Shown piece by piece: positions 101 through 61,665 of a DNA stretch of 64,000 bases. This DNA comes from an uncultured Gammaproteobacteria bacterium (GTDB taxonomy: Bacteria; Patescibacteriota; Patescibacteriia; Magasanikbacterales; UBA922). The position numbers and the translations under genes were made by a program. The notes below the pieces were generated by a model. That model searched no databases, was not told the DNA's origin, and saw only the letters and a program-made list of their open reading frames with translations. Location of the stretch: assembly GCA_964345045.1 (NCBI GenBank), contig CAYFPM010000001.1:539264-603263 (forward strand), in the 5' to 3' direction. Positions within the stretch are counted from its first letter, which is position 1. Every line of letters begins with the position of its first letter.

Positions 101-433
101 ATGCAGCGTCTTTTTCTATTGACTCTTCTGGGCCTTTGTCCGGTCTTCGGAGGTTGTGTCTCGATCGAGCTAAAATTCGAGACGGCTGTGAGGACGGTGC
201 ACCACCATCACCACAGTAACAACCGATGCGAGGAGAGACGAGCAAAAGCAAAGACCAAACCTGAATCAGCAACACCTCTTCCGGCGCTGGTCTCGTCGGA
301 GTTGAGCTTTCGCTACGCAGAGGAAGGCGTAGCTAGGACTTCCACAACCTCGAGAGTGGAAGACCTCCTCAGCCTGGTAGTGAAACCAGGCAACATCGAA
401 GAAGACCGCGAAGAGGAAGGCGCGGAAGAGTAA
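101..433 (+). CDS. hypothetical secreted protein (N-terminal signal peptide, His-rich stretch); GC-rich island gene
   Basis: ORF track; hydrophobic N-terminus LLTLLGLCPVFGGC; strong SD GGAGAGAAGGGAGG ~8 nt upstream of the ATG; local GC far above the AT-rich surroundings. Confidence 0.4.
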   Translation: MQRLFLLTLLGLCPVFGGCVSIELKFETAVRTVHHHHHSNNRCEERRAKAKTKPESATPLPALVSSELSFRYAEEGVARTSTTSRVEDLLSLVVKPGNIEEDREEEGAEE

Positions 434-489: not shown

Positions 490-564
490 CTCGCCCACTT
501 GCAATCAACCTTGTTTAGGTTGTTTTATTTTTGCTAAATTTAGTTAAATTTATATGTTTTTAGC

Positions 565-593
565 TTGACAAATAGCTTCAAATTTGTTATTAT
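565..593 (+). promoter_or_regulatory. sigma70-like promoter TTGACA-N17-TATTAT, followed by a ~170-nt leader to the 768 ATG
   Basis: TAGCTTGACA at 561-570, TATTAT at 588-593; SD GGGAGG at 756-761. Confidence 0.4.
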
Positions 594-767
594 CACCGAC
601 TACTTTTTAGTAGCTATGTTCTTTCAAATGCGAATTAGCTTGGGATTTTGAGGCGTATATTTGCGCCCCAGTATCTCTAGCTAATTTGCTACAAGCAAAG
701 AGGCTACGAGTGGCAAAAACTGCGTCGTTTTTTCGGCGCCTTTTCCGAAGTTTCATGGGAGGACCAT

Positions 768-1949
768 ATGAACTTCACTCGCTTGGCGAGCATGATCGCC
801 GTTCTGTTCACCCTTTCCGTCGTGGCCTGCGGGCCGAGCTACGACATCAACCTGCCCGAGCCCGAGGTGGTGGTCAACGAGACCGTCACCTCGACCACGA
901 TCGTCATCAACAACACCGAGACGTCGACCACCATCGTGGTCGATGGGAACTGTCGCTACGGCGCCCACACGCAGCGCCACCTCTACATCGGTGACATCAC
1001 GAGAACCGAAGTGGAGGCCGGGCAGAGCCTGGTGGTGGCTGGTGCGGATCTCATCCCCAGTTGCGAGGGCAAAGAAATCTTCCTCCGCTCGGTTGCATTC
1101 CGGATCAACACCAACGAGGTCGGCGAGATCATCACCGACACTCGACTCATGATCGGCCCAGAGTTGGTCACCAACGCGAACTTCACCAACAACCGCGATC
1201 GCATCTTCACCTGGATTCTCCCAAACGCACGGCCAATCGACTACAGCGGCATGGGGTTCAATATCCTGGCCACCACTAGCACGTCGGCACCGCTCGGGTA
1301 CTACGGCATAGACATCGTCGAACTCGTCATCGAAGACGAGAACGGTGATGTTGTAGAAACCAGTCCCATGAACGGAGGCTGGTCCTTCCAGATCGTTGAA
1401 AGAACCGCAGGCTACTGCGAAGGTGCTGGCTGCTGTGGCACGGGGACAACCTGGGACTCAGTCCGAGAGATCTGCATCGCAGATGTACAAATTTCCCAAT
1501 GCGGTGGCAACCTAAACCTAATACCGGCTCTCAACGTAGGCAATAACACCTACGGCCCAGGTCAGGCAGCCGAGTGGTTCTTCGATCTGGAGAACCAGGC
1601 CAGTGAGGCTAGCAACCTTGAGCGACTTACTTTTGTTCTAAGTGGTCAATCGATTCAACCGTGGGTCAACTGCACTTTTGGTACTGCTAGCGGGGTCCTA
1701 CTCGACAGCGGTAGTATCCCCACCACTGCCTATCGTGTAGAATTCTTGCTCAACTCGGGAGCAGGATACATACTGCCAGCCGGAGCCACAGAACGTATGG
1801 TCGTACGGTGCCAACTCTCTTCACAGATGGTCAACTCTGGCCGACAGTGGCTGTCGCTCATCAAGATGGGAGCAGAAGGCAATCGAACCCGGTGCAGCAT
1901 GCCCTGGCTCGGGGCCTTCCACGATTGGGTGGACATCGTCGGCAACTAG
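768..1949 (+). CDS. hypothetical secreted lipoprotein (signal peptide ending in a lipobox-like VVAC); GC-rich island gene
   Basis: 393-aa ORF; N-terminus MNFTRLASMIAVLFTLSVVAC; high GC; other-frame ORFs in the same span are GC artefacts. Confidence 0.55.
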   Translation: MNFTRLASMIAVLFTLSVVACGPSYDINLPEPEVVVNETVTSTTIVINNTETSTTIVVDGNCRYGAHTQRHLYIGDITRTEVEAGQSLVVAGADLIPSCEGKEIFLRSVAFRINTNEVGEIITDTRLMIGPELVTNANFTNNRDRIFTWILPNARPIDYSGMGFNILATTSTSAPLGYYGIDIVELVIEDENGDVVETSPMNGGWSFQIVERTAGYCEGAGCCGTGTTWDSVREICIADVQISQCGGNLNLIPALNVGNNTYGPGQAAEWFFDLENQASEASNLERLTFVLSGQSIQPWVNCTFGTASGVLLDSGSIPTTAYRVEFLLNSGAGYILPAGATERMVVRCQLSSQMVNSGRQWLSLIKMGAEGNRTRCSMPWLGAFHDWVDIVGN

Positions 1950-45985: not shown

Positions 45986-48900
45986 CTATACAACAACACT
46001 CACCAACCTCCCCTTCACATAAATCACCTTTTTCGGTTCTTTGCCCTCTAGCCATTTTATAACATTCTCTTGTTCTAGAGCTGTTTTCTTCACTTCTTCT
46101 TCACTAATTTCGGCTGGCACTTCTATAGTCGCCCGTACTTTACCATTTACCTGCACCGCGATTTTGACTACATCGTCGACTATTTTTTCTTTGTCATACT
46201 CTGGCCAAACGGATAGTGAAACAAATTCTTCAAATTCAAACATACCCGCAATCTCTTCGGCCAAATGCGGAGCAAATGGAGCCATTAATTTTTGCATGGC
46301 AATAACTGAACTGTAGTTCACTGTAGGAACTTCCTTAGTTCCAATATTCTTTCTTAGGATCATCAATTGGCTCACGGCAGTATTGAATCTCATTCCATCC
46401 AAATCTTCACCAATCTTCTTGATAGATTTGTGCAAAAGCTTTTCAAATTCTGGATTATTCTCACCCATGTACTCCCCATTTTTGTAAACTGCAAAATTGT
46501 CCCCTATATTTTCTTTTAGCTCTGCAAAGTAATCGTACCAACGATCCAAAAATCTGCGTACCCCTTTTACCCCGTCATCATTCCACGGCTTGGTCTGTTC
46601 TAGCGGCCCCATAAACATCTCGTAGGTACGCAAAGTGTCGGCTCCAAACTCATTAACTACATCAGTGGGGTTAATCACATTACCCCAGCGTTTACTCATC
46701 TTTCTATTATCTTCTCCCAATATAAGTCCTTGATGACGATTCTTGGTAAATGGCTCATCGAAATCAATGTAACCTGCATCAAATAAAACCTTGGTAAAAA
46801 AACGTGAGTATAAGAGGTGTCCATTGACATGCTCTTCTCCACCTAGGTAAAAATCTACTGGCATCCAAGCTTTCAAACTTTCTGGAGAAGCAAATTCATT
46901 TTCATTGTTTGGGTCTAGGTAACGGAAGTAATACCAAGAAGAACACATAAATGTATCCAATGTGTCTACCTCGCGCTTCCAACCTGCACCATATTTTTCC
47001 TCTACTCCTTTTTGAAATTCTTCGGAATATGTAAGTGGAGATTGACCAGTTGGTTTAAAATCTACGTCGCTTGGGAGTAATACTGGGAGATCTTTTTCTG
47101 GAACTGGTTTCAAACCAGAAACAAATACTTCTTCCAAAATTGCCGGCTCTACCAAACCAGTCAAATGATCTTCGTTTGCACTGGCATACACTACTCTTGC
47201 ATCAAAGATATTTACTTGTTCGTCTATTTGTTCTTTTTTGATTATAGGATAATTTTTGTCTGCAATAACAACTGTTTCTTGTGGTAAATCTTTTATTGAA
47301 GCAAAATCAAATTGTAATTTTGCTTCATCACGAAATTCTCTTTCTTTTCCATCATTAAATTCTGGTCTTAGCATGGTATCTATCAATACCAATTTGGCAA
47401 TAGGCTGTTTGGTTTTTGCCAAAAGATGAAATGCCACTGGACCACCATGGCTATGAGCTACCACAACGGTATCTTTGTCCAATTTTATATTTTCAAATAA
47501 ATAATTGGCCTGTTCTGTGGCATTTGGTATTTCTGTATTTGGCAAATCTAGCACCACAACTTTGTGACCTTTTGCTTCTACTTGTGCTTTTAACCACGGC
47601 CAAAAATCTGACTCTGCTGTACCACCTCGTCCATGAATAAAAACATATTGTCTTTTGCTCTCTGCTTCTTGTTCATTGACCAGAATTGGCAATGGTGCTC
47701 CCCAAAAACGCTGGCGAGACACAGACCAATCGCGGAGTTTGTATTGAACTTTACTTTCTCCGTAACCACCATCTACAATCTTTTGCAAAATCTTTTTTCT
47801 ACCTTCCTCATAATCAAATCCATCAAATTCTTCTGAATTTATCAATTTAAACTTCTTTTTGTCTTTTTTTATCTCTGCGTAGCTTACAAACTCTTCTTTT
47901 GAATCCACCACACTTATAACTTCCAAACCAAACTTCTTGGCAAATTCATAATCACGTTCGTCTGCTCCAGGCACAGCCATAATAGAACCAGTTCCATAGG
48001 TAGCCAAAACATAATCTGAAATCCACACTGAAATTTCTTTACCGTTTATAGGATTAATAGCTTTTATTCCCTTTAGTTCTACTCCGGTCTTTTCTTTTTG
48101 GGTTTGTCTATCTAATTCTGTTTTCTTGGAAGTTTCTTTTATATACTTTTCAACTTCATCAATATTTTCAACAATTGTTTCTTGTTTCTTGCCTGCCCCG
48201 TTAGCTTGTCTTTCGGGGTTTCTTGTTTCTTCGAGAAGCGTAGCGACGAGCTCATGCTCTGGTGCCAAAACCATAAAAGAAACTCCGTAGATAGTGTCGT
48301 GAGCGGTGGTAAAGACTGGAATTCTGAATTCTGAATTCTGAATTTCAAAATCAATCTCTGCTCCTTCCGAACGCCCAATCCAATTCCTCTGTCTCATCTT
48401 TGTCTCCTCTGGCCAATCAATCTTATCAAGATCTGCCAAAAGTCTGTCGGCATAATCAGTAATTTTCAAATACCATTGCTCCATTTCTTTTTGCACTACC
48501 ACGTCATCACTACGTTCACACTTACCATCTACCACTTGCTCGTTGGCCAGAACTGTTTTACAACCATCACACCAGTTTACACTTTGCTTTTTTCTATAAG
48601 CCAAACCACGCTCGTACATAAGAAGAAAAAACCACTGGGTGAATTTGTAATACCCAGGATCAGAACTACGCACAAACCTATCCCAATCAACCGAAATTCC
48701 AAGAGACTTTACTTGAGACACAAACATCTCACCAGTTTTGTCGATAGTTTCTCTGGGGTGTACATTAGTCTTAATTGCATAATTCTCGGCTGGCAAACCA
48801 AAAGAATCCAAACCAAAAACTTGAAGGACTTTCTTACCCTTCATACGCAAGTAACGAGCATAAATATCGCAGGCAGTATAAACCTCGGCATGGCCTACAT

Positions 48901-49048
48901 GCAGCCCAGATCCAGATGGGTACGGCAGCTGTGGCAGCACATAAGCTTTGTTTTCGGGGGTAGCATCGGCTGGAGTCTTGAACACCTCTTCTTCTTCCCA
49001 TATCTCTTGCCACTTAGCCTCTATCTCTTTTGGGTTATATTCTTTCAT
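45986..49048 (-). CDS. leuS: leucyl-tRNA synthetase with an inserted YdeN/RBBP9-like serine hydrolase domain
   Basis: HVGH class-I motif, CP1 editing domain, KMSKS; residues ~458-645 (YVFIHGRGG...DFWPW...VVAHSHGG) match the Ser_hydrolase fold. Confidence 0.95.
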   Translation of the reverse strand: MKEYNPKEIEAKWQEIWEEEEVFKTPADATPENKAYVLPQLPYPSGSGLHVGHAEVYTACDIYARYLRMKGKKVLQVFGLDSFGLPAENYAIKTNVHPRETIDKTGEMFVSQVKSLGISVDWDRFVRSSDPGYYKFTQWFFLLMYERGLAYRKKQSVNWCDGCKTVLANEQVVDGKCERSDDVVVQKEMEQWYLKITDYADRLLADLDKIDWPEETKMRQRNWIGRSEGAEIDFEIQNSEFRIPVFTTAHDTIYGVSFMVLAPEHELVATLLEETRNPERQANGAGKKQETIVENIDEVEKYIKETSKKTELDRQTQKEKTGVELKGIKAINPINGKEISVWISDYVLATYGTGSIMAVPGADERDYEFAKKFGLEVISVVDSKEEFVSYAEIKKDKKKFKLINSEEFDGFDYEEGRKKILQKIVDGGYGESKVQYKLRDWSVSRQRFWGAPLPILVNEQEAESKRQYVFIHGRGGTAESDFWPWLKAQVEAKGHKVVVLDLPNTEIPNATEQANYLFENIKLDKDTVVVAHSHGGPVAFHLLAKTKQPIAKLVLIDTMLRPEFNDGKEREFRDEAKLQFDFASIKDLPQETVVIADKNYPIIKKEQIDEQVNIFDARVVYASANEDHLTGLVEPAILEEVFVSGLKPVPEKDLPVLLPSDVDFKPTGQSPLTYSEEFQKGVEEKYGAGWKREVDTLDTFMCSSWYYFRYLDPNNENEFASPESLKAWMPVDFYLGGEEHVNGHLLYSRFFTKVLFDAGYIDFDEPFTKNRHQGLILGEDNRKMSKRWGNVINPTDVVNEFGADTLRTYEMFMGPLEQTKPWNDDGVKGVRRFLDRWYDYFAELKENIGDNFAVYKNGEYMGENNPEFEKLLHKSIKKIGEDLDGMRFNTAVSQLMILRKNIGTKEVPTVNYSSVIAMQKLMAPFAPHLAEEIAGMFEFEEFVSLSVWPEYDKEKIVDDVVKIAVQVNGKVRATIEVPAEISEEEVKKTALEQENVIKWLEGKEPKKVIYVKGRLVSVVV

Positions 49049-49254: not shown

Positions 49255-49938
49255 ATGGAAAGACTACATTCAGAAAGGAGATTAGGAGAGATAGAAGGAG
49301 ATAGTATTAATACTAATGAAAATTCCCGTTTTGAAAAAACCAAAGAAGAACAAGCTTTGGTAGAGAGAGCTGTGGCTGGAGATAGAGAAGCTTTTTCTGC
49401 TTTGGTAATTGAAAACCAAAATATTGTAGAAGCTAGCTTGAGAGCAATAGTTACAGGACTTAGTGATGAGGATGTAGAAGATATTATTTCAACTACCTGG
49501 CTCAAAGCTCTAAATAACATAGATTCTTTCGAGCCACAGGCAAAATTTTCTACTTGGCTTACCCAAATAGCAAAAAATACAGCTTTAGACAGGTTAAGAA
49601 AAAAGAGCAATAAAGATAGAATTATTTCTGGTAGTGCAAATGTCCCAGTCCATGATTCAGAAAATTCCCCAGAATTAATAAACGTAACAGCTGACCCAAA
49701 GGCATTTTTGCCAGATGAAGAGTATTCTTCTAGAGAAGGGATTCATTTACTTAGAAAAGCAATAAATGAATTACCAGAATCATTAAAAAAACCACTGTTA
49801 ATGACCATGTTTGAAGATAAAGACTATGATACTATTGCCGAAGAACTTGGTATCACGAAGCAAGCGCTAAAAAATAGAATCCACCGTGCCAGAACTGAAA
49901 TAAAAGACAAAATTTCTAAAAGAGAAAATTCGCACTAA
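49255..49938 (+). CDS. RNA polymerase sigma-70 family (ECF-type) sigma factor
   Basis: region 2 (VERAVAGDREAFSALV...) and region 4 (TIAEELGITKQALKNRIHRAR). Confidence 0.7.
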   Translation: MERLHSERRLGEIEGDSINTNENSRFEKTKEEQALVERAVAGDREAFSALVIENQNIVEASLRAIVTGLSDEDVEDIISTTWLKALNNIDSFEPQAKFSTWLTQIAKNTALDRLRKKSNKDRIISGSANVPVHDSENSPELINVTADPKAFLPDEEYSSREGIHLLRKAINELPESLKKPLLMTMFEDKDYDTIAEELGITKQALKNRIHRARTEIKDKISKRENSH

Positions 49939-50827: not shown

Positions 50828-51535
50828 ATGGAAGGAAAAGAGCATCCCCAAGGAACTCAACCACCAGTGGAGGAGCAAGGAGAAGAAATTAAGGAGAAAA
50901 AAGAAAAAAAACCAGTGGATCCAGAATTAGCAGAGGCTCGCAAAAAAGAATTGAAAGAATTACTTGCTGGAAAAGAAATACAAGCTTACTTACTAAAATA
51001 TATAAATAAATACCATAGCCCCTTATCTTACATAGCAGATGATATTGTTCAAACAGTTTTATTAAAAGCCTTAAACCCCAAAAACCCTTTTAATGGAGAA
51101 TCTAATCCCAAAACTTGGATTCTAGCTATAGCAAGAAATACATGTTTGGAAAAAGCTCGCACTAGAAAAAAACAAATAGAACGTACAGCTCAATCTAAAC
51201 TATTAGATTTATTAGAAGATGAATCTCCTAAAACTCAATTGGAACAAGGGGCTTTTACCAAAGAACAAAAACGGATTCTCCTACAAGCTATTGAAGCTAC
51301 TTTGAGGGTAGAAGATAAACTAATAATGATGATGTTTTATAACGATGGTAAAACTTCTAAAGAAATAAGTGAAATTTTAGACATAACTCCCGTAGCTGTA
51401 CGCCAAAGACTTAATAGAGCTAGAAAAGAAATAAAAAAATATATAAAAACGATTGAGAAAGGAAGGATTCCTCTAGACAAAGACTCCTATATAGAACACT
51501 ACCCAGAAAAATTGGTGGGGCATAAAGGAGTTTAA
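50828..51535 (+). CDS. RNA polymerase sigma-70 family (ECF-type) sigma factor with an N-terminal low-complexity extension
   Basis: region 2 (DIVQTVLLKAL...WILAIARN) and region 4 (ISEILDITPVAVRQRLNRARKEIK). Confidence 0.65.
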   Translation: MEGKEHPQGTQPPVEEQGEEIKEKKEKKPVDPELAEARKKELKELLAGKEIQAYLLKYINKYHSPLSYIADDIVQTVLLKALNPKNPFNGESNPKTWILAIARNTCLEKARTRKKQIERTAQSKLLDLLEDESPKTQLEQGAFTKEQKRILLQAIEATLRVEDKLIMMMFYNDGKTSKEISEILDITPVAVRQRLNRARKEIKKYIKTIEKGRIPLDKDSYIEHYPEKLVGHKGV

Positions 51536-51723: not shown

Positions 51724-52392
51724 TCAAGAACCCTCTTCTATTCGACGACTCTCATCGCCTACTTTGATAAGATAGTCCACCCTCTCTTCGTCAACTCGCA
51801 GTTTCATACACGACCAAAGGCATAAGCCTAGATAATAACTGAACAAGACGTGACAGATCCGTGTGTATAGGCTGAAGGGCCAGGAGCCCGCATAGCGGTA
51901 GTCATAGTTGTGGATCCACCAGTCTATTACGACAGCCATGAAGGAGGATATCCCACCCAAAATTCCAAAAAACAAGAGTCCGACTACCAATCTAGGTAGC
52001 CACTTGAGAAAAAACATCGGCTGGGCATGAACGAGCTTTCGAACCAAGAAAGTCATGGGGGCCAGAATAGCGATGATCCATGGCACCAGGAATAGATACC
52101 AATAGGACCTCGTACCTGGGTAGAACCAGCTATCGTTAAAGGGACGCCAGCTCTTTAGCCCCAAAATATTGACACCAATCGCGACTAGCAAAATCCAGGC
52201 GACTAAGATTGGAAACAGGGACAAAAACTGTTTGAGAGAAGGATTGCGATCGAGATAAGGCTTAACGAACTTGAAGCTTACCGAGAAGACTCCCTTTATG
52301 AGGGTGACTGCTGATATGAAGACACTCAACACTTTCCGGATCATGTCCAGTCCGTCGTCAAGGTAATCGTCAACGGTTTTGAAGTCTTTCAT
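51724..52392 (-). CDS. hypothetical polytopic membrane protein; compositionally GC-richer than neighbours, strong SD (AGGAGGGGG)
   Basis: ORF track; SD read on the minus strand at 52396-52410. Confidence 0.5.
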   Translation of the reverse strand: MKDFKTVDDYLDDGLDMIRKVLSVFISAVTLIKGVFSVSFKFVKPYLDRNPSLKQFLSLFPILVAWILLVAIGVNILGLKSWRPFNDSWFYPGTRSYWYLFLVPWIIAILAPMTFLVRKLVHAQPMFFLKWLPRLVVGLLFFGILGGISSFMAVVIDWWIHNYDYRYAGSWPFSLYTRICHVLFSYYLGLCLWSCMKLRVDEERVDYLIKVGDESRRIEEGS

Positions 52393-52592
52393 CTTTTTTT
52401 CCCCCTCCTTAAGGGCATCAAAGAGTGCGTAACCTTATGATGGCCACGCATGATTGTAAACTTCCAAAGTGTACTGCCGACCTATGCCGACGTACATCAT
52501 GGATAGTGACGGTAGGTATACCATAAAAAAATCATTCTGTCAATATAAAAAGAACATTCTTTATAGAATGTTCTTTTTGTTTTTAAAAATTT

Positions 52593-56075: not shown

Positions 56076-58106
56076 TTACTCTTCCTTAAACTCAATCTTT
56101 CTAATCTTGGATTCTTCGGTGTAAAATTCTAGCACATCACCCACTTCTATTTTTACTTTACCTTCGTAACGCATACCACACTCGGTTCCGCTTGGGACTT
56201 CTTTTTCGGTTTGTTTACCAATTTGCAAGTTTGTAACCTTGCCCAAACCAATTTCTTCACCATCGCGTTTTACTCGAACTTGAGCATCTTTTTTAATCTT
56301 ACCACTCTCGACTCTACCACCTACGGTCATAGCTTTTTTCTCGGTTCGGAAAATAGCCATTACTTTCAAATTTCCCAGTTCGGTAACAATCTTTTCGTGT
56401 TCTAATAATTTTTCTAATTCTTCTTGAGTCCATTTGATAAGGTCATAAATAACTTGAAACTGTAAAAAATTAACTCCTTTTTCTCGCATAGACTCTTCGG
56501 CCATTGGAGTTGGATTAACATGAAAACCAATCACATGCGCTTTTCCAGCTTCGGCTTTGCTGATATCTGATTCATTGATATTTCCCAAACCTTTTCCAAT
56601 AATCTTAATAGCCACTTCGTCGTGTCTGATTTTTTCTAGTGAACCAATAATCGCTTCTAGCGAACCAAGCACATCGGCTTTTATAAGCAAGTTCAAATTT
56701 TTCTTGCCTTCTTCATCTTCACCAGAATCATCACTTTGCAAAACTACGCTAGTTTTTTGCGCTCCGGTCATTTGGCTGTGTTTTTGTTTTACATCAATTT
56801 TTTCTGCGGTTTCGGCTTTGGCTACGTTTAGGATATCTCCTACTTCCGGAGCTACTTTAAAACCAATAATCTGTACTGGCACAGCTGGACCAGCTTCTTC
56901 TATTTGATTACCCTTGTAATCTTTCATGGCTCTTACCTTGCCATAAATTTCGTTGTTTACTACTAGTGGATCATTTTTCTTTAGGGTTCCGGCTTGTACC
57001 AAAATAGTGGCCACCGGGCCTACGTTTTTGTCTTTGTGAGATTCAATCACAGTACCCACAGCTGGGATACCGGCATCGGCTACTATGTTTTCTCCATTCA
57101 TATCGGCCATTAGCAAAAGCACATCTAGAAGTTTATCTATATTTATTTCGTTCTTGGCAGAAATTTCTACCATTGGCACGTCTCCGCCCCAATCTTCGGC
57201 TTGCACACCTTTGCCACTAAGTTCGGTTTTTACTTTTTGTACATCGGCAGTGTCTTTGTCGATTTTGTTAATAGCTACTACAAATGGTAGTTTGGCAGCT
57301 TTGATAATTTGGATTACTTCTTCGGTTTGTGGTTTTACCCCATCGTCGGCAGCTACTACCAAGATAGCCATGTCGGCGACTTTGGCACCACGGCTACGCA
57401 TAACTGTAAAGGCTTCGTGACCTGGAGTATCGATAAAGGTGAGGGCTCTTTCTTCTTTGCTTTTTGGATCTTTCCAAACTGTTTGGTAAGCCCCAATGTG
57501 CTGGGTAATTCCTCCGGCTTCGGTATCTATAATATTGGCTTTTCTAATGGTGTCTAGTAATCTGGTTTTTCCGTGGTCTACATGCCCCATCACTACTACT
57601 ACCGGAGATCTGGTGGCTTTGTTTTCTCCTTTTGCCAAAGCATCTTCTAGGACTTCACTTTTTTCTGTTTCTTCTTCTACATTTTCTTCATTTTCTCTAT
57701 TTACAGTAAAACCCAAATCTTCGGCCATAATAGAAGCAGTTTCTATATCCAAGTTTTGGTTTTGGTTGGCCAAAATTCCGTTTTTCATAAGCTCGGTAAT
57801 TACTTGAGCTACAGACATATCTAGTCTTTCGGCAAATTCTTTTACTGTAAGTAAATTTGGCAAAGTTACGGTCTTTCCCATTTCTCTACGCAATTCTTTT
57901 TCTTTTTCTTTACGTTCTTCTTCGGCTTTGCTTTCTTGGGCTTCTATTTCTCTTTTTATGTGTCTCCAACGACGCATTATGGTATTGGCCACTTTGTCGT
58001 CTATCTTAATAGCTTTGGCTCCAATATCAAAACCATGCTTAGGTAATATTTCTAGCATTTTTTTGGGATGGACACGGAGTCTTCTGGCGAGTTCGGTTAC
58101 ATTCAT
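56076..58106 (-). CDS. infB: translation initiation factor IF-2
   Basis: GHVDHGKT G-domain plus the IF-2 C-terminal domains. Confidence 0.95.
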   Translation of the reverse strand: MNVTELARRLRVHPKKMLEILPKHGFDIGAKAIKIDDKVANTIMRRWRHIKREIEAQESKAEEERKEKEKELRREMGKTVTLPNLLTVKEFAERLDMSVAQVITELMKNGILANQNQNLDIETASIMAEDLGFTVNRENEENVEEETEKSEVLEDALAKGENKATRSPVVVVMGHVDHGKTRLLDTIRKANIIDTEAGGITQHIGAYQTVWKDPKSKEERALTFIDTPGHEAFTVMRSRGAKVADMAILVVAADDGVKPQTEEVIQIIKAAKLPFVVAINKIDKDTADVQKVKTELSGKGVQAEDWGGDVPMVEISAKNEINIDKLLDVLLLMADMNGENIVADAGIPAVGTVIESHKDKNVGPVATILVQAGTLKKNDPLVVNNEIYGKVRAMKDYKGNQIEEAGPAVPVQIIGFKVAPEVGDILNVAKAETAEKIDVKQKHSQMTGAQKTSVVLQSDDSGEDEEGKKNLNLLIKADVLGSLEAIIGSLEKIRHDEVAIKIIGKGLGNINESDISKAEAGKAHVIGFHVNPTPMAEESMREKGVNFLQFQVIYDLIKWTQEELEKLLEHEKIVTELGNLKVMAIFRTEKKAMTVGGRVESGKIKKDAQVRVKRDGEEIGLGKVTNLQIGKQTEKEVPSGTECGMRYEGKVKIEVGDVLEFYTEESKIRKIEFKEE

Positions 58107-58114
58107 AAGGTATA

Positions 58115-58144
58115 TACGAAATACGAAATATACGAAAGTACGAA
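58115..58144 (-). promoter_or_regulatory. four tandem TTCGTA repeats (gene orientation; spacing 8/9/7) ending 8 nt before the infB ATG
   Basis: read directly in the sequence. Confidence 0.4.
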
Positions 58145-58245
58145 ATTTTGTATTTTATTTTTAAAAAGTGAGTATTATAATTTACCTGATTGTATCTAAA
58201 TTTAGCGAAAAAGTCAAGATTAGGCTTTGGCCAAGTAAAAATAGC

Positions 58246-58275
58246 TTGACATTATTATATTTTTAATGATAAAAT
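58246..58275 (+). promoter_or_regulatory. sigma70-like promoter TAGCTTGACA-N18-TAAAAT driving a ~200-nt structured leader
   Basis: read directly in the sequence; shares the TAGCTTGACA context with the 565-593 promoter. Confidence 0.4.
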
Positions 58276-58380
58276 TTTTCACTATGTATTTTTTGGAGGC
58301 TCTGCATGGCTATATGTGAGTTTTCATTTTTATTAAGAAGACTTAATTGTTCTTTACAGGATAGATAGGAATAAAAAATA

Positions 58381-58436
58381 AAGAGATCGTGAGCAAATGG
58401 CTTATATATGGAGCTTTTTGTTCGCGATCTCTTTGA
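58381..58436 (+). other. 18-bp RNA hairpin in the nhaA leader (AAAGAGATCGTGAGCAAA ... TTGTTCGCGATCTCTTT) with two G-U wobbles that form only on the plus-strand RNA
   Basis: read directly in the sequence. Confidence 0.45.
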
Positions 58437-58485
58437 GATCAAATGATAATGGCGCATTTGCGCCCAACACAAGAGGAGTACCACA

Positions 58486-59736
58486 GTGTCTCACGAGAAG
58501 GAAGGGCCTCGAAGGCCAATCGACATCATCCAAGAATACTCACTCCCGCTCATCGCGGGGGTGATCGGTGCAATGTTGTGGGCCAATCTGAGCCCACACT
58601 CCTACCACGAGTTCATCCACTTCTCTCCGTTCGCGGAGGGGAACCCCCTGCACGTACTGAACTTCCACTTCCTGATGAACGACTTCGTGATGGTCTTCTT
58701 CTTCGGAATCGCTACCAAGGAGATCACCGAAGCCTGCCTCCCCGAAGGAGACCTCAACCCTCCGAGGAAGGCAGTGAACCCGCTGCTGGGAACGCTGGGA
58801 GGAGTGATTGGACCCATCGCGGTCTACAAACTCTACGTCTACTTCACGGGTGCCGAAGCCATCAGCGAAGGCTGGGGCATCCCCACCGCAACTGACATCG
58901 CGCTCGCGTGGCTACTGGCTCGTGTAGTTTTCGGGAAGAATCACCCAGCAGTGAGCTTCCTGCTCCTGTTGGCCGTGGCCGACGACGGACTCGGACTCGG
59001 CATCATCGCCGTCTTCTACCCAGATCCTTCCCACCCGGTGCAGCCAGCCTACTTGGTACTGGTGGCCATCGCCATGGCTGGCGCGTACTACTTGCGAAGG
59101 AAGAATGTACAGAACTACGGGGTCTACCTCGTAGGGCCAGGAGTTCTCTCCTGGGCCGGCCTTTTCCTGGCACACCTCCACCCAGCGCTCGCGCTGGTGT
59201 TCGTGGTTCCTTTCTTGCCCAACATGGGTCATGACGACGGCATGTACGCGGAGATGAGTACTGGAAAAACGTACCTCGATCCGCTCAACAAGTTCGAACA
59301 CGCTGTCAAGCTGCCAGTGGATCTCGGACTCTTCGGGTTCGGCCTGGCCAACGCTGGGGTGGAGTTCTCGAGCATGGGTCATGGTACCTGGGCAGTTCTG
59401 GCCGGGCTGCTACTCGGCAAGACTGTAGGTATCTTCGGCTTCTCGATGCTCGGCCACCTGAGTGGCAAGGCGCCCCTCCCCGAAGGGATGCGCTGGAACC
59501 ACTTGCTGGTCGCCGGCATCGTGGCAGGTCTCGGTCTGACCGTAGCTCTGTTCGTGGCAGGAGTCGCGTTCACCGAACCTATGTTGCAGGGTGCGGCCAA
59601 GATGGGTGCACTGCTTTCGGCATTCATTGCCCCCATCGCGGTCGTGGCAGGTTTCGTCCTGCGTGTGAAGGACGAAGACAAATCACCCGTCGATCTGAGC
59701 AGTGCTGCCGAAGCGCCAGCCACCAGCAGCAGCTGA
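58486..59736 (+). CDS. nhaA: Na+/H+ antiporter NhaA (GTG start); GC-rich island gene
   Basis: GIPTATDIALAWLLA and LLLLAVADDGLGLGIIAVFY signatures; SD AAGAGGAG at 58471-58478. Confidence 0.85.
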   Translation: MSHEKEGPRRPIDIIQEYSLPLIAGVIGAMLWANLSPHSYHEFIHFSPFAEGNPLHVLNFHFLMNDFVMVFFFGIATKEITEACLPEGDLNPPRKAVNPLLGTLGGVIGPIAVYKLYVYFTGAEAISEGWGIPTATDIALAWLLARVVFGKNHPAVSFLLLLAVADDGLGLGIIAVFYPDPSHPVQPAYLVLVAIAMAGAYYLRRKNVQNYGVYLVGPGVLSWAGLFLAHLHPALALVFVVPFLPNMGHDDGMYAEMSTGKTYLDPLNKFEHAVKLPVDLGLFGFGLANAGVEFSSMGHGTWAVLAGLLLGKTVGIFGFSMLGHLSGKAPLPEGMRWNHLLVAGIVAGLGLTVALFVAGVAFTEPMLQGAAKMGALLSAFIAPIAVVAGFVLRVKDEDKSPVDLSSAAEAPATSSS

Positions 59737-59857
59737 CCCCCACCCACCGCGTTTCCCTTCTGGTATTCTCCAGGAAGCTGTTAGAGGACACAGCGAACAC
59801 GCTATTCATTCCTATCTGTCCTCATTCCCTTTGCCCTTAAAAATATTTTAAGATCAA

Positions 59858-59893
59858 AGGAAAATAAAAAACCCTGTACAGATTAATACAGGG
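59858..59893 (+). terminator. rho-independent terminator (ACCCTGTA ... TACAGGGT + TTTTTT)
   Basis: read directly in the sequence. Confidence 0.65.
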
Positions 59894-59947
59894 TTTTTTG
59901 TTTGCCAAGCCAAAATAACTTTGTTAATCTGATAACAAGGAGGACAA

Positions 59948-61134: not shown

Positions 61135-61665
61135 TTACTTGGCCAACTTTTCGTTATACAATTCCATTGATCTTTTTACAGCAGCTAGAGCAGCTTCTTT
61201 GCCTTCGAATCCATTTACTTCTACTACTTTGTCTTGCAACTTTTTGTAATTTTCGTAAAAGTGTTTCAAAGTTTTTAATTGATGCTGGTTTACGTCGCCA
61301 ATGTCTTGTACATTGTCCCAGCGTGGGTCGTCTACCGGCACGCCAATTACTTTGTCGTCACTGTCACCACTATCTATCATTTTCATTAGTCCCACTGGTC
61401 TGGTGTGAACTACAATCCCCGGATGTAGCGGCTCGGTAGTTAGCACAATTACGTCTAGAGCATCGCCATCGTCCCAAAGAGTTTTTGGAGCAAACCCATA
61501 GTCCATTGGGAATACTTGAGCAGTGTGGCTAACGCGGTCTAACGCAATCAGTCCAGTTTCTTTATCGATTTCGTATTTATTTAACGATCCTCTTGGGATT
61601 TCTATAATAGTGGTAAATATTTCCGGTGCCTTTTCTCCTAGCGGCACATCATGCCATAGATTCAT
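61135..61665 (-). CDS. ppa: inorganic pyrophosphatase (family I)
   Basis: DGDALDVIVL and PVGLMKMID motifs. Confidence 0.9.
   Translation of the reverse strand: MNLWHDVPLGEKAPEIFTTIIEIPRGSLNKYEIDKETGLIALDRVSHTAQVFPMDYGFAPKTLWDDGDALDVIVLTTEPLHPGIVVHTRPVGLMKMIDSGDSDDKVIGVPVDDPRWDNVQDIGDVNQHQLKTLKHFYENYKKLQDKVVEVNGFEGKEAALAAVKRSMELYNEKLAK

Follow-up and report, generated by a model that had tools for sequence, protein, structure and literature searches.

The closest described counterparts of the elements considered here are the Li+-I and Li+-II riboswitches (nhaA-I and nhaA-II), structured 5' leaders upstream of nhaA-type genes, a class in which both PF06965 and PF07399 are counted as nhaA, which were proposed to be ON switches for cation export (White et al. 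2022, PMC9646797). The Na+-I riboswitch (DUF1646 motif) occurs with genes for Na+-related transporters, among them those of the napA/kefB type, and its intrinsic terminator overlaps P2 (White et al. 2022, PMC9337991). Here we analysed two 5' leaders within a stretch of 64,000 nucleotides (the window; GCA_964345045.1, contig CAYFPM010000001.1), one preceding nhaA, which encodes a Na+/H+ antiporter, and the other preceding an orphan lipoprotein gene, in a host assigned from IF-2 matches to Candidatus Magasanikbacteria (Patescibacteria), the best match in another organism being 75% identical. In E. coli, nhaA is controlled from its upstream region by the Na+-responsive transcription factor NhaR. 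The 5' stem-loop stabilisers and RNase III-processed leaders of the ompA, ermC and aprE type are long, stable, sense-specific hairpins of the 5' untranslated region (UTR) with no U-tract; they are not known to carry a conserved single-stranded motif or covarying hairpin domain, or to be tied to one functional gene class.

The leader family described here resembles the Li+-I/II riboswitches in lying directly upstream of monovalent-cation transporter genes (PF06965, PF07399 and PF00999), nhaA-type genes included, but it differs from them in lacking a covariance-model match, in its conserved nucleotides, in its patescibacterial lineage, and in preceding also genes of the cation/proton antiporter (CPA) type, an unknown membrane protein and a lipoprotein. 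With Na+-I it shares a small domain of two hairpins, P1 and P2, in which unpaired nucleotides are conserved; in contrast to Na+-I, it has neither a terminator nor an Rfam match, and a long stable hairpin separates the conserved domain from the Shine–Dalgarno sequence (SD). Specifically, an Rfam cmscan of the whole window at the gathering threshold returned no match, and neither window leader matched nhaA-I, nhaA-II, DUF1646 or any other relevant Rfam family even at E <= 10, so that the ion riboswitches suggested by the original prediction found no counterpart among the catalogued models. No such match was obtained at E <= 5 within the leaders of three related loci (L016, L020 and L021). The preQ1-I riboswitch, which the sequence GUUCU..UACA followed by an A-rich tail resembles, was discarded for want of an Rfam match, and among the papers returned by full-text searches on Magasanikbacteria antiporters and on candidate phyla radiation riboswitches, none has a title or abstract that describes the leader element. 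With moderate confidence, and from a small sample of sequences, we consider this to be a cation-transporter leader RNA outside the catalogued RNA families.

The elements of the nhaA transcription unit are the following.

58242-58275, plus strand: nhaA promoter, with the -35 TTGACA at 58246-58251, an 18-nt spacer and a TG-extended -10, TGATAAAAT, at 58267-58275
58288-58372, plus strand: leader core, with GGAGG at 58295-58299, CUCUG at 58300-58304 and CAGG at 58357-58360
58306-58368, plus strand: upstream open reading frame (uORF) of 20 codons, MAICEFSFLLRRLNCSLQDR and a stop codon, 6 nt after GGAGG
58317-58325 with 58337-58345, plus strand: predicted P2 hairpin, arms UGAGUUUUC and GAAGACUUA
58348-58358, plus strand: conserved motif UGUUCUUUACA, with GUUCWUUACA at 58349-58358
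58380-58434, plus strand: long hairpin of 23 bp (an 18-bp stem capped by a 5-bp apical helix); the sense-strand fold contains 4 G·U pairs
58451-58464, plus strand: short GC hairpin GGCGCA-UU-UGCGCC (GGCGCATTTGCGCC), about 10 nt upstream of the SD
58472-58478 and 58486-58488, plus strand: SD AGAGGAG and GTG start codon
58486-59736, plus strand: nhaA, Na+/H+ antiporter (PF06965), GC 60%, GC content at third codon positions (GC3) 0.73

Those of the lipoprotein transcription unit are given below.

561-593, plus strand: promoter, with the -35 TTGACA at 565-570, a 17-nt spacer and the -10 TATTAT at 588-593, preceded by TG
600-613, plus strand: 5' hairpin CUACU-UUUU-AGUAG
617-632, plus strand: short-form motif UGUUCUUUCAAAUGCG, with the variant TGTTCTTTCAAATGCG of GUUCWUUACA
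630-689, plus strand: long imperfect hairpin (60 nt, 25 bp), 4 of whose pairs are G·U in the sense strand
652-667, plus strand: palindrome GGCGUA-UAUU-UGCGCC (GGCGTATATTTGCGCC), at the tip of the 630-689 hairpin and about 90 nt upstream of the SD
768-1949, plus strand: lipoprotein open reading frame (ORF) of 393 aa, GC 57%, GC3 0.71, with the SD GGGAGG at 757-762

We think it rather likely that both leaders are native members of a conserved structured leader family in a subclade of Ca. Magasanikbacteria, acting in cis as a regulatory or stabilising RNA. The conservation of this leader family, its gene association and its strand specificity are observed directly, as set out below.

The shared signal was recognised by comparison with related infB loci, collected through exact-protein look-ups together with a metagenome scan using an alignment of the lineage-specific IF-2 N-terminus (80 loci). 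In 482 kb of related sequence, GTTC[AT]TTACA was found 11 times, against 2.9 +/- 1.9 expected from shuffles, and 10 of these 11 occurrences fall in sense 5' leaders of membrane-protein genes (position 58349 of the window, L016, L020, L021, L032, L093, L097-99 and L102). Close variants are present in L022 and L072, and a looser one in L101. Two of these loci, L032 and L093, do not adjoin infB, so it is the transporter gene and not infB that the motif accompanies.

Outside these two loci, the setting is largely a conserved slot divergent from infB, which in the window is anchored by two features.

56076-58106, minus strand: infB (IF-2), divergent from nhaA
58217 down to 58189, minus strand: infB own promoter, TTGACT and TACAAT with a 17-nt spacer

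An antiporter diverges from infB in about 16 of 86 loci, and it belongs to one of three Pfam families: NhaA (PF06965) in the window, L022, L027, L030, L072, L098, L099 and L101; PF07399 in L020, L033 and L034, with L093 having one nearby; and Na_H_Exchanger/CPA (PF00999) in L021 and L097. The cargo of the slot in L016 and L102 is an uncharacterised polytopic membrane protein (the two copies being 44% identical), encoded behind the same leader.

3170-4681 of L016, minus strand: polytopic membrane protein
294-1438 of L102, minus strand: polytopic membrane protein

This protein has no Pfam, NCBIfam or PDB relative, and searches returned no homologues or families; its association with this slot and leader makes it a candidate novel cation transporter. 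The nearest relative, L016, has no nhaA, yet it presents the same leader layout before an unrelated cargo: a promoter (TTGACA-N15-TGATAAACT) is followed by the motif, here TGTTCTTTACA, by a long hairpin whose base, AGAGAUYGYG, is the same as in the window, by a short hairpin and by the SD. Closely related to one another are L097, L098 and L099, whose infB genes are 83-88% identical in nucleotides and whose IF-2 N-termini are 91-98% identical. Their leaders (about 230 nt) are 81-85% identical, that is, as conserved as coding DNA, while their cargo differs, consisting of a PF00999 protein, a PF06965 protein 37% identical to the window NhaA and an NhaA 61% identical to it. The same leader core precedes a PF07399 gene in L093.

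The composition of the genes behind the leaders points to a foreign origin. The mean GC of the window is about 38%, and its GC-rich ORFs have sharp boundaries; in every related locus examined, the GC3 of the cargo exceeds that of the host infB (0.31-0.86 vs 0.12-0.56), the cargo values being 0.43-0.86 in most loci and lower, 0.31, in L034. The nearest NhaA homologues are 70% identical and lie on contigs of 60-73% GC with unrelated upstream DNA, the named ones coming from Myxococcota, Bdellovibrionales and Deltaproteobacteria. These GC-rich contigs and their unrelated upstream DNA argue that the nhaA ORF is horizontally acquired and that its AT-rich leader is native and not donor-derived. Of the NhaA reference families PF06965 and NCBIfam TIGR00773, the nhaA product is on record as a member of PF06965, and NCBIfam NhaA models match it at E 1e-43 to 1e-46, below the equivalog/subfamily cut-offs, so it is taken as a family member and not as an assigned equivalog. 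The orphan lipoprotein gene is likewise a foreign ORF (57% GC) behind a native AT-rich leader; for its product, no homologue was found among 5.8 billion proteins, and no family matched.

Both window leaders fold far better than shuffled sequences (z = -5.4 and -5.6). As whole-leader MAFFT alignments misregistered the hairpin arms, they were replaced by model-based (A9) and hand-trimmed (A11) alignments. In L097-99, RNAalifold predicts a P1 helix (UCUGUA/UACAGG) enclosing P2, followed by the unpaired UCAUUACAA, a hairpin of 20 or more bp and a third hairpin before the SD, with 9 compensatory pairs; in P2, a U-rich loop connects a pyrimidine-rich 5' arm to a purine-rich 3' arm. When L093 was added, 5 of the 16 P2 pairs were compensatory, and 97.8% of the cells pair; in slid controls, no more than 50% do. 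In the base of the long hairpin (13 bp, homologous in the window, L016 and L102), 5 of 13 pairs are compensatory, including a U:A / U:G / C:G series, and 97.4% of the cells pair vs 25-52% with slid partners. P1 abuts the motif with a different helix in each lineage: UCUGUA/UACAGG in L097-99 and L093, UUGCC/GGCAA in L020, UGCCUU/AAGGCA in L102 and UCUG/CAGG in the window and L016.

The strand on which these hairpins form is also evident. As the original prediction had stated, the 18-bp nhaA stem is real and its two non-Watson-Crick positions read as G·U on the plus strand and as A·C on the minus strand, while the hairpin as a whole spans 58380-58434 and not 58381-58436; its folding energy is -31.4 kcal/mol in sense and -19.1 in antisense. 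Across nine long hairpins, 23 G·U pairs occur in the sense orientation vs 5 in antisense, and the sense fold is stabler by 4-14 kcal/mol in six of them and about equal in three. The hairpins are RNA structures on the cargo mRNA. Compensatory changes and strand-specific G·U pairs, the marks of a conserved structured RNA, are thus both present, in few sequences and in alignments that are model-fitted or hand-made. The search for homologous leaders and covariation that had been proposed as a check was borne out, with such leaders found in other Magasanikbacteria and compensatory changes in both the long hairpin and P2.

A covariance model built from L097-99 matches L093 with 48 bits (E 8.5e-10). 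The broader model R2, built from L093 and L097-99 and run with filters off, matches the window core at 58288-58372 over its full length with 13 bits (E 0.53 for the whole window, or 0.0022 when only the leader is considered), the L102 leader with 18.7 bits, as the top match in 75 kb, and the L020 leader with 14 bits. All of these matches fall on the expected stretch, with P2 and the motif in register. Hits in L063 and L055 were discarded as false positives, the former lying upstream of truB and the latter apparently inside coding sequence.

As for the lipoprotein leader, it shares no overall alignment with the nhaA leader beyond short blocks (local-alignment z = 1.6). The pattern TGTTCTTTN{2,3}ATGCG occurs once in the window and in none of 100 shuffles, and among all the loci it is otherwise present only in the L016 and L021 leaders. 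On the strength of its 5' hairpin, motif, AUGCG and long hairpin, the lipoprotein leader is probably a weaker, short-form member or paralogue of the family.

Several points weigh against a single conserved family of this kind. The lipoprotein leader is not matched by the leader covariance models, and the R2 scores for the window, L020 and L102 are marginal; pairwise leader alignments are weak (z 0.5-4). The P2 alignment was fitted to the model and the long-hairpin alignment was constructed by hand. P1 is no longer than 4-7 bp and in the window can be placed in two registers, UCUG pairing with either CAGG or UAGA, so that these short helices carry little weight as evidence. Furthermore, it was not possible to define one expression platform shared by every member, some slot antiporter leaders (L027, L030, L033 and L034) are without the motif, the orphan lipoprotein among the downstream genes misfits a purely ion-related regulon, and the family consists of about 12 related leaders, all from metagenome contigs.

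A conserved cis-acting leader would work as follows. The module comprises a sigma-70 promoter, the P2 domain, closed by P1 in the long forms, the largely single-stranded GUUCWUUACA, a hairpin of 18-25 bp, a short hairpin and the SD. It lies before GC-rich acquired membrane-protein genes, mostly of three unrelated Na+/H+ antiporter families and usually divergent from infB, where the coding sequence would have been repeatedly exchanged and the leader retained. Acting in cis on the mRNA after initiation, the leader would affect translation and/or mRNA stability and not intrinsic termination. The motif and the P1/P2 domain would form a recognition element for an ion or a trans-acting factor, and the long hairpin would hold the flanks together, serving for structure, processing or stabilisation.

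The features by which the two leaders had originally been linked were a common -35 region and a GC palindrome. The first is present as described: TAGCTTGACA, that is TAGC followed by the -35 TTGACA, occurs exactly twice in the window, at 561-570 and 58242-58251, and each copy holds the -35 of a sigma-70-like promoter with hexamers matching at 11 of 12 positions, spacing within 16-18 nt and a TG extension (565-593 and 58246-58275). From these promoters, transcription would start at about 600 for the lipoprotein gene and at about 58282 for nhaA. The layout TTGAC[AG]-N15-TGnTAnnnT of the nhaA promoter recurs in L016 and L020. TAGC itself lies upstream of TTGACA in no relative's promoter and is not one of the conserved features. 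The palindromes are both present, at 652-667 and 58451-58464, within 1-2 nt of the coordinates first given, and their pattern occurs nowhere else in the window; the statement that they lie shortly before the SD applies to nhaA and not to the lipoprotein leader, where the palindrome forms a hairpin tip. Being devised after seeing the data, the pattern yields a biased estimate of chance. A generalised GCRYA-N2-6-TGYGC hairpin was found 22 times vs 18.4 expected in the 482 kb, and the GC palindrome was consequently rejected as a recurrent module. Only L016 has a counterpart at the same place (GCGCA-ACA-UGCGC); other hairpins stand at this position in L102 (a UUCG hairpin), in L097-99 (ACAGGA..UCCUGU) and, with another sequence, in L093. 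Hence the palindrome is neither conserved in orthologous leaders nor over-represented, as a palindromic transcription-factor operator should be, and the idea of a shared operator is unsupported. It also differs from NhaR-type operators in lying 170-200 nt downstream of the promoter, in a transcribed leader whose G·U pairs are meaningful only in RNA. The short hairpin before the SD may instead be a structural feature of the leader.

That these similarities, TAGCTTGACA and the GC palindrome, arose by chance between unrelated promoters and leaders has about an even chance of being right. The palindromes sit at non-equivalent positions and are not enriched, TAGC is absent from the relatives, and the leaders have no overall alignment; on the other hand, the two leaders share an independently significant motif and architecture, and TAGC is found in only these 2 of the 16 promoter-like sites of the window, which fits an old intragenomic duplication. 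The likeness of the two promoters is thus either chance or the trace of such a duplication. A miniature inverted-repeat transposable element or mobile promoter cassette was rejected, because the window copies are too dissimilar and show no consistent target duplications. As judged from the sequences compared, the conserved signal shared by the two leaders is GUUCWUUACA (58349-58358, with its variant at 617-632) together with the long hairpins, and not the palindrome or TAGC. The proposal of a regulatory leader RNA holds, then, insofar as the leaders are related and the nhaA hairpin is a sense-strand RNA structure, for reasons mostly other than the shared features listed in its support.

What the motif itself does can be read in several ways. 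It is possible, though we put it forward only tentatively, that a trans-acting protein binds at the motif, be it a regulator acting on the RNA or a repressor acting on the DNA; the hairpins would then be accessories, and regulation would come from that protein and not from the RNA. The short motif of 10-11 nt is strictly conserved while its surroundings diverge freely, a loop that GCC/GGC or CCU/AGG closes can expose it in L020, L102 and L097-99, and in L022 and L032 it directly adjoins the SD with no long hairpin. For a DNA operator, however, a promoter distance varying from about 24 to about 75 nt and an orientation that is always sense are unusual; the dyad of the motif amounts to only 3 bp (TGT/ACA), and no regulator gene is conserved beside the slot. 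An extracytoplasmic function (ECF) sigma promoter around GAAC on the infB strand was rejected, there being no consistent -10 at 16-17 nt.

Doubtful in our opinion is a constitutive stabilising or processing module, serving as an RNase III substrate or as a protective 5' stem-loop after cleavage near the motif and raising the expression of codon-mismatched foreign genes. The hairpins are long enough for RNase III, sense-specific and without U-tracts; their position is conserved and their sequence is not, and the module precedes foreign genes of differing function, the lipoprotein included. Such a role leaves unexplained the strict conservation of GUUCWUUACA and P2, the presence of the motif without the long hairpin in L022, L032 and L072, and the strong bias towards Na+/H+ antiporters.

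A new class of Na+/Li+- or pH-sensing riboswitch, in which P1, P2 and the junction motif would form the putative aptamer of two mutually exclusive folds, appears unlikely. Its appeal comes from a gene association like that of Li+-I/II and Na+-I, namely nhaA (PF06965 and PF07399) and napA/kefB-type CPA2 genes (PMC9646797, PMC9337991), from a junction motif that is conserved, unpaired and flanked by a covarying P2, and from an alternative pairing available in several members. Specifically, in L093, L097-99 and the window the 5' GGAGG(G)GCUC can take the place of the 3' arm of P2 opposite its pyrimidine-rich 5' arm, excluding P1 and P2, and in the window this pairing (GGAGGCUC:GAGUUUUC) is the minimum free energy structure of the nhaA leader. 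The alternative fold is not found in the short-form leaders, and the combination of the GGAGG segment and P1 is absent from the short forms (L016, L021 and the lipoprotein leader) and from L020 and L102. Besides the missing match to Rfam ion riboswitches, there is no terminator or clear SD-sequestering platform, and the orphan lipoprotein and the unknown membrane protein are also among the downstream genes. A scan for plus-strand terminators in 58282-58485 found none, nine leaders are without U-runs after their long hairpins, and no GC-rich stem with a U-tract and a competing antiterminator was seen; since no hairpin is followed by a U-tract, classical attenuation, the other mechanism originally envisaged, is not at work. 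In the window, a minus-strand T-run follows the nhaA hairpin; a minus-strand terminator upstream of infB was nevertheless rejected, because upstream there is no gene on the minus strand, relatives do not have the T-run and the wobbles become A·C. We would accordingly give little probability to a Patescibacteria-specific riboswitch class that senses Na+/Li+ or pH, controls the slot antiporter and has been kept through horizontal replacement of the cargo.

Very improbable, lastly, is that the motif is the start of a leader peptide (NUG-UUC-WUU-ACA, M-F-F/I-T) or that the uORF at 58306-58368 mediates translational attenuation: UG precedes the motif in 9 of 11 lineages, giving AUG, GUG, UUG or CUG, such an ORF would in L022 and L072 end overlapping the main start codon, and the window uORF has GGAGG 6 nt upstream, but both readings were rejected for lack of an SD before the mini-ORF and of any AUG preference, for CCG at the start position in L097-99 and L102, and for inconsistent peptide lengths and frames. 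Among L097, L098 and L099, the uORF has disappeared or changed frame (L099 has no AUG and L097 stops after 7 codons), its frame differs in L016 and L021, and we judge it to be incidental in the nhaA leader.

Some further observations concern the leaders and their surroundings. The third hairpin of L098, L099 and L097 (A4 columns 179-197) has GGA in the loop of all three (CAGGAAAGUCCUG, CAGGAUGUUCCUG and CGGGGAGGUCCCG), and several GGA sites occur in the window leader; the GGA-loop hairpins of L097-99 resemble CsrA-type binding sites. On the 5' side of the lipoprotein promoter lies an ORF (101-433, plus strand) of 54% GC with a lipoprotein-like signal, LLGLCPVFGGC, and an HHHHH run, for which no family matched, followed just upstream of the promoter by a GC-rich hairpin at 441-490. 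A third ORF with raised GC3 (0.58; 51724-52392, minus strand) belongs to no known family and is preceded by the promoter TTGACA-N15-TGGTATACC; its leader (52393-52545) contains GUUUACAAUCAUGCG (52460 down to 52447), possibly related in degenerate form to the GUUCUUUACAUGCG motif. About 130 nt past the nhaA stop codon, a perfect 14-bp A-tract/T-tract hairpin, AAAAAACCCTGTAC..GTACAGGGTTTTTT, at 59866-59899 has the appearance of a bidirectional terminator. GC content stays high over roughly 100 nt from the nhaA stop codon towards this hairpin, which suggests that the 3' edge of the acquired DNA lies near 59830.

On the other side of the slot, the infB 5' UTR (58107-58150, minus strand) has four tandem copies of (T)TTCGTA directly before the ATG and no obvious SD. 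Such repeats recur upstream of infB in relatives, with three copies in L016 (4955-4995), five in L028 and two each in L022 and L023, and may serve infB as a site where a protein or the ribosome binds. A pyrophosphatase is encoded between the methyltransferase gene and the slot, soluble (PF00719) in the window (61135-61665, minus strand), L021, L033, L048 and L098, its place being taken by a membrane H+/Na+-pumping pyrophosphatase (PF03030) in other loci (those compared include L016, at 556-2547, L018, L020, L022, L027, L056 and L073). The neighbourhood of the slot looks like a variable ion-energetics cassette. Further away, the 1020-aa leucyl-tRNA synthetase (45986-49048, minus strand) has Abhydrolase_1 and Ser_hydrolase Pfam matches between its tRNA-synt_1 segments; alpha/beta-hydrolase matches are found in the L019 enzyme too, and the L016 enzyme, of 826 aa, is without them. 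Two ECF-like sigma-factor genes (Sigma70_r2/r4_2) lie between the GDH and leuS genes, at 49255-49938 and 50828-51535 on the plus strand, and an ECF-like sigma gene is present in the same neighbourhood of L019 and L101; attempts to relate the leader motif to a promoter of the ECF type gave no match.

Patescibacteria have very few transcription factors and, to our knowledge, regulation in this group (Candidate Phyla Radiation) is almost unexplored. If true, a leader RNA retained in front of three swapped antiporter families would be a candidate new cis-regulatory RNA of ion homeostasis, with a testable ligand hypothesis. It would also be a clear example of a regulatory 'socket' that receives foreign genes bearing GC-rich donor signatures, and the leader family would then show how reduced genomes domesticate horizontally acquired membrane proteins.

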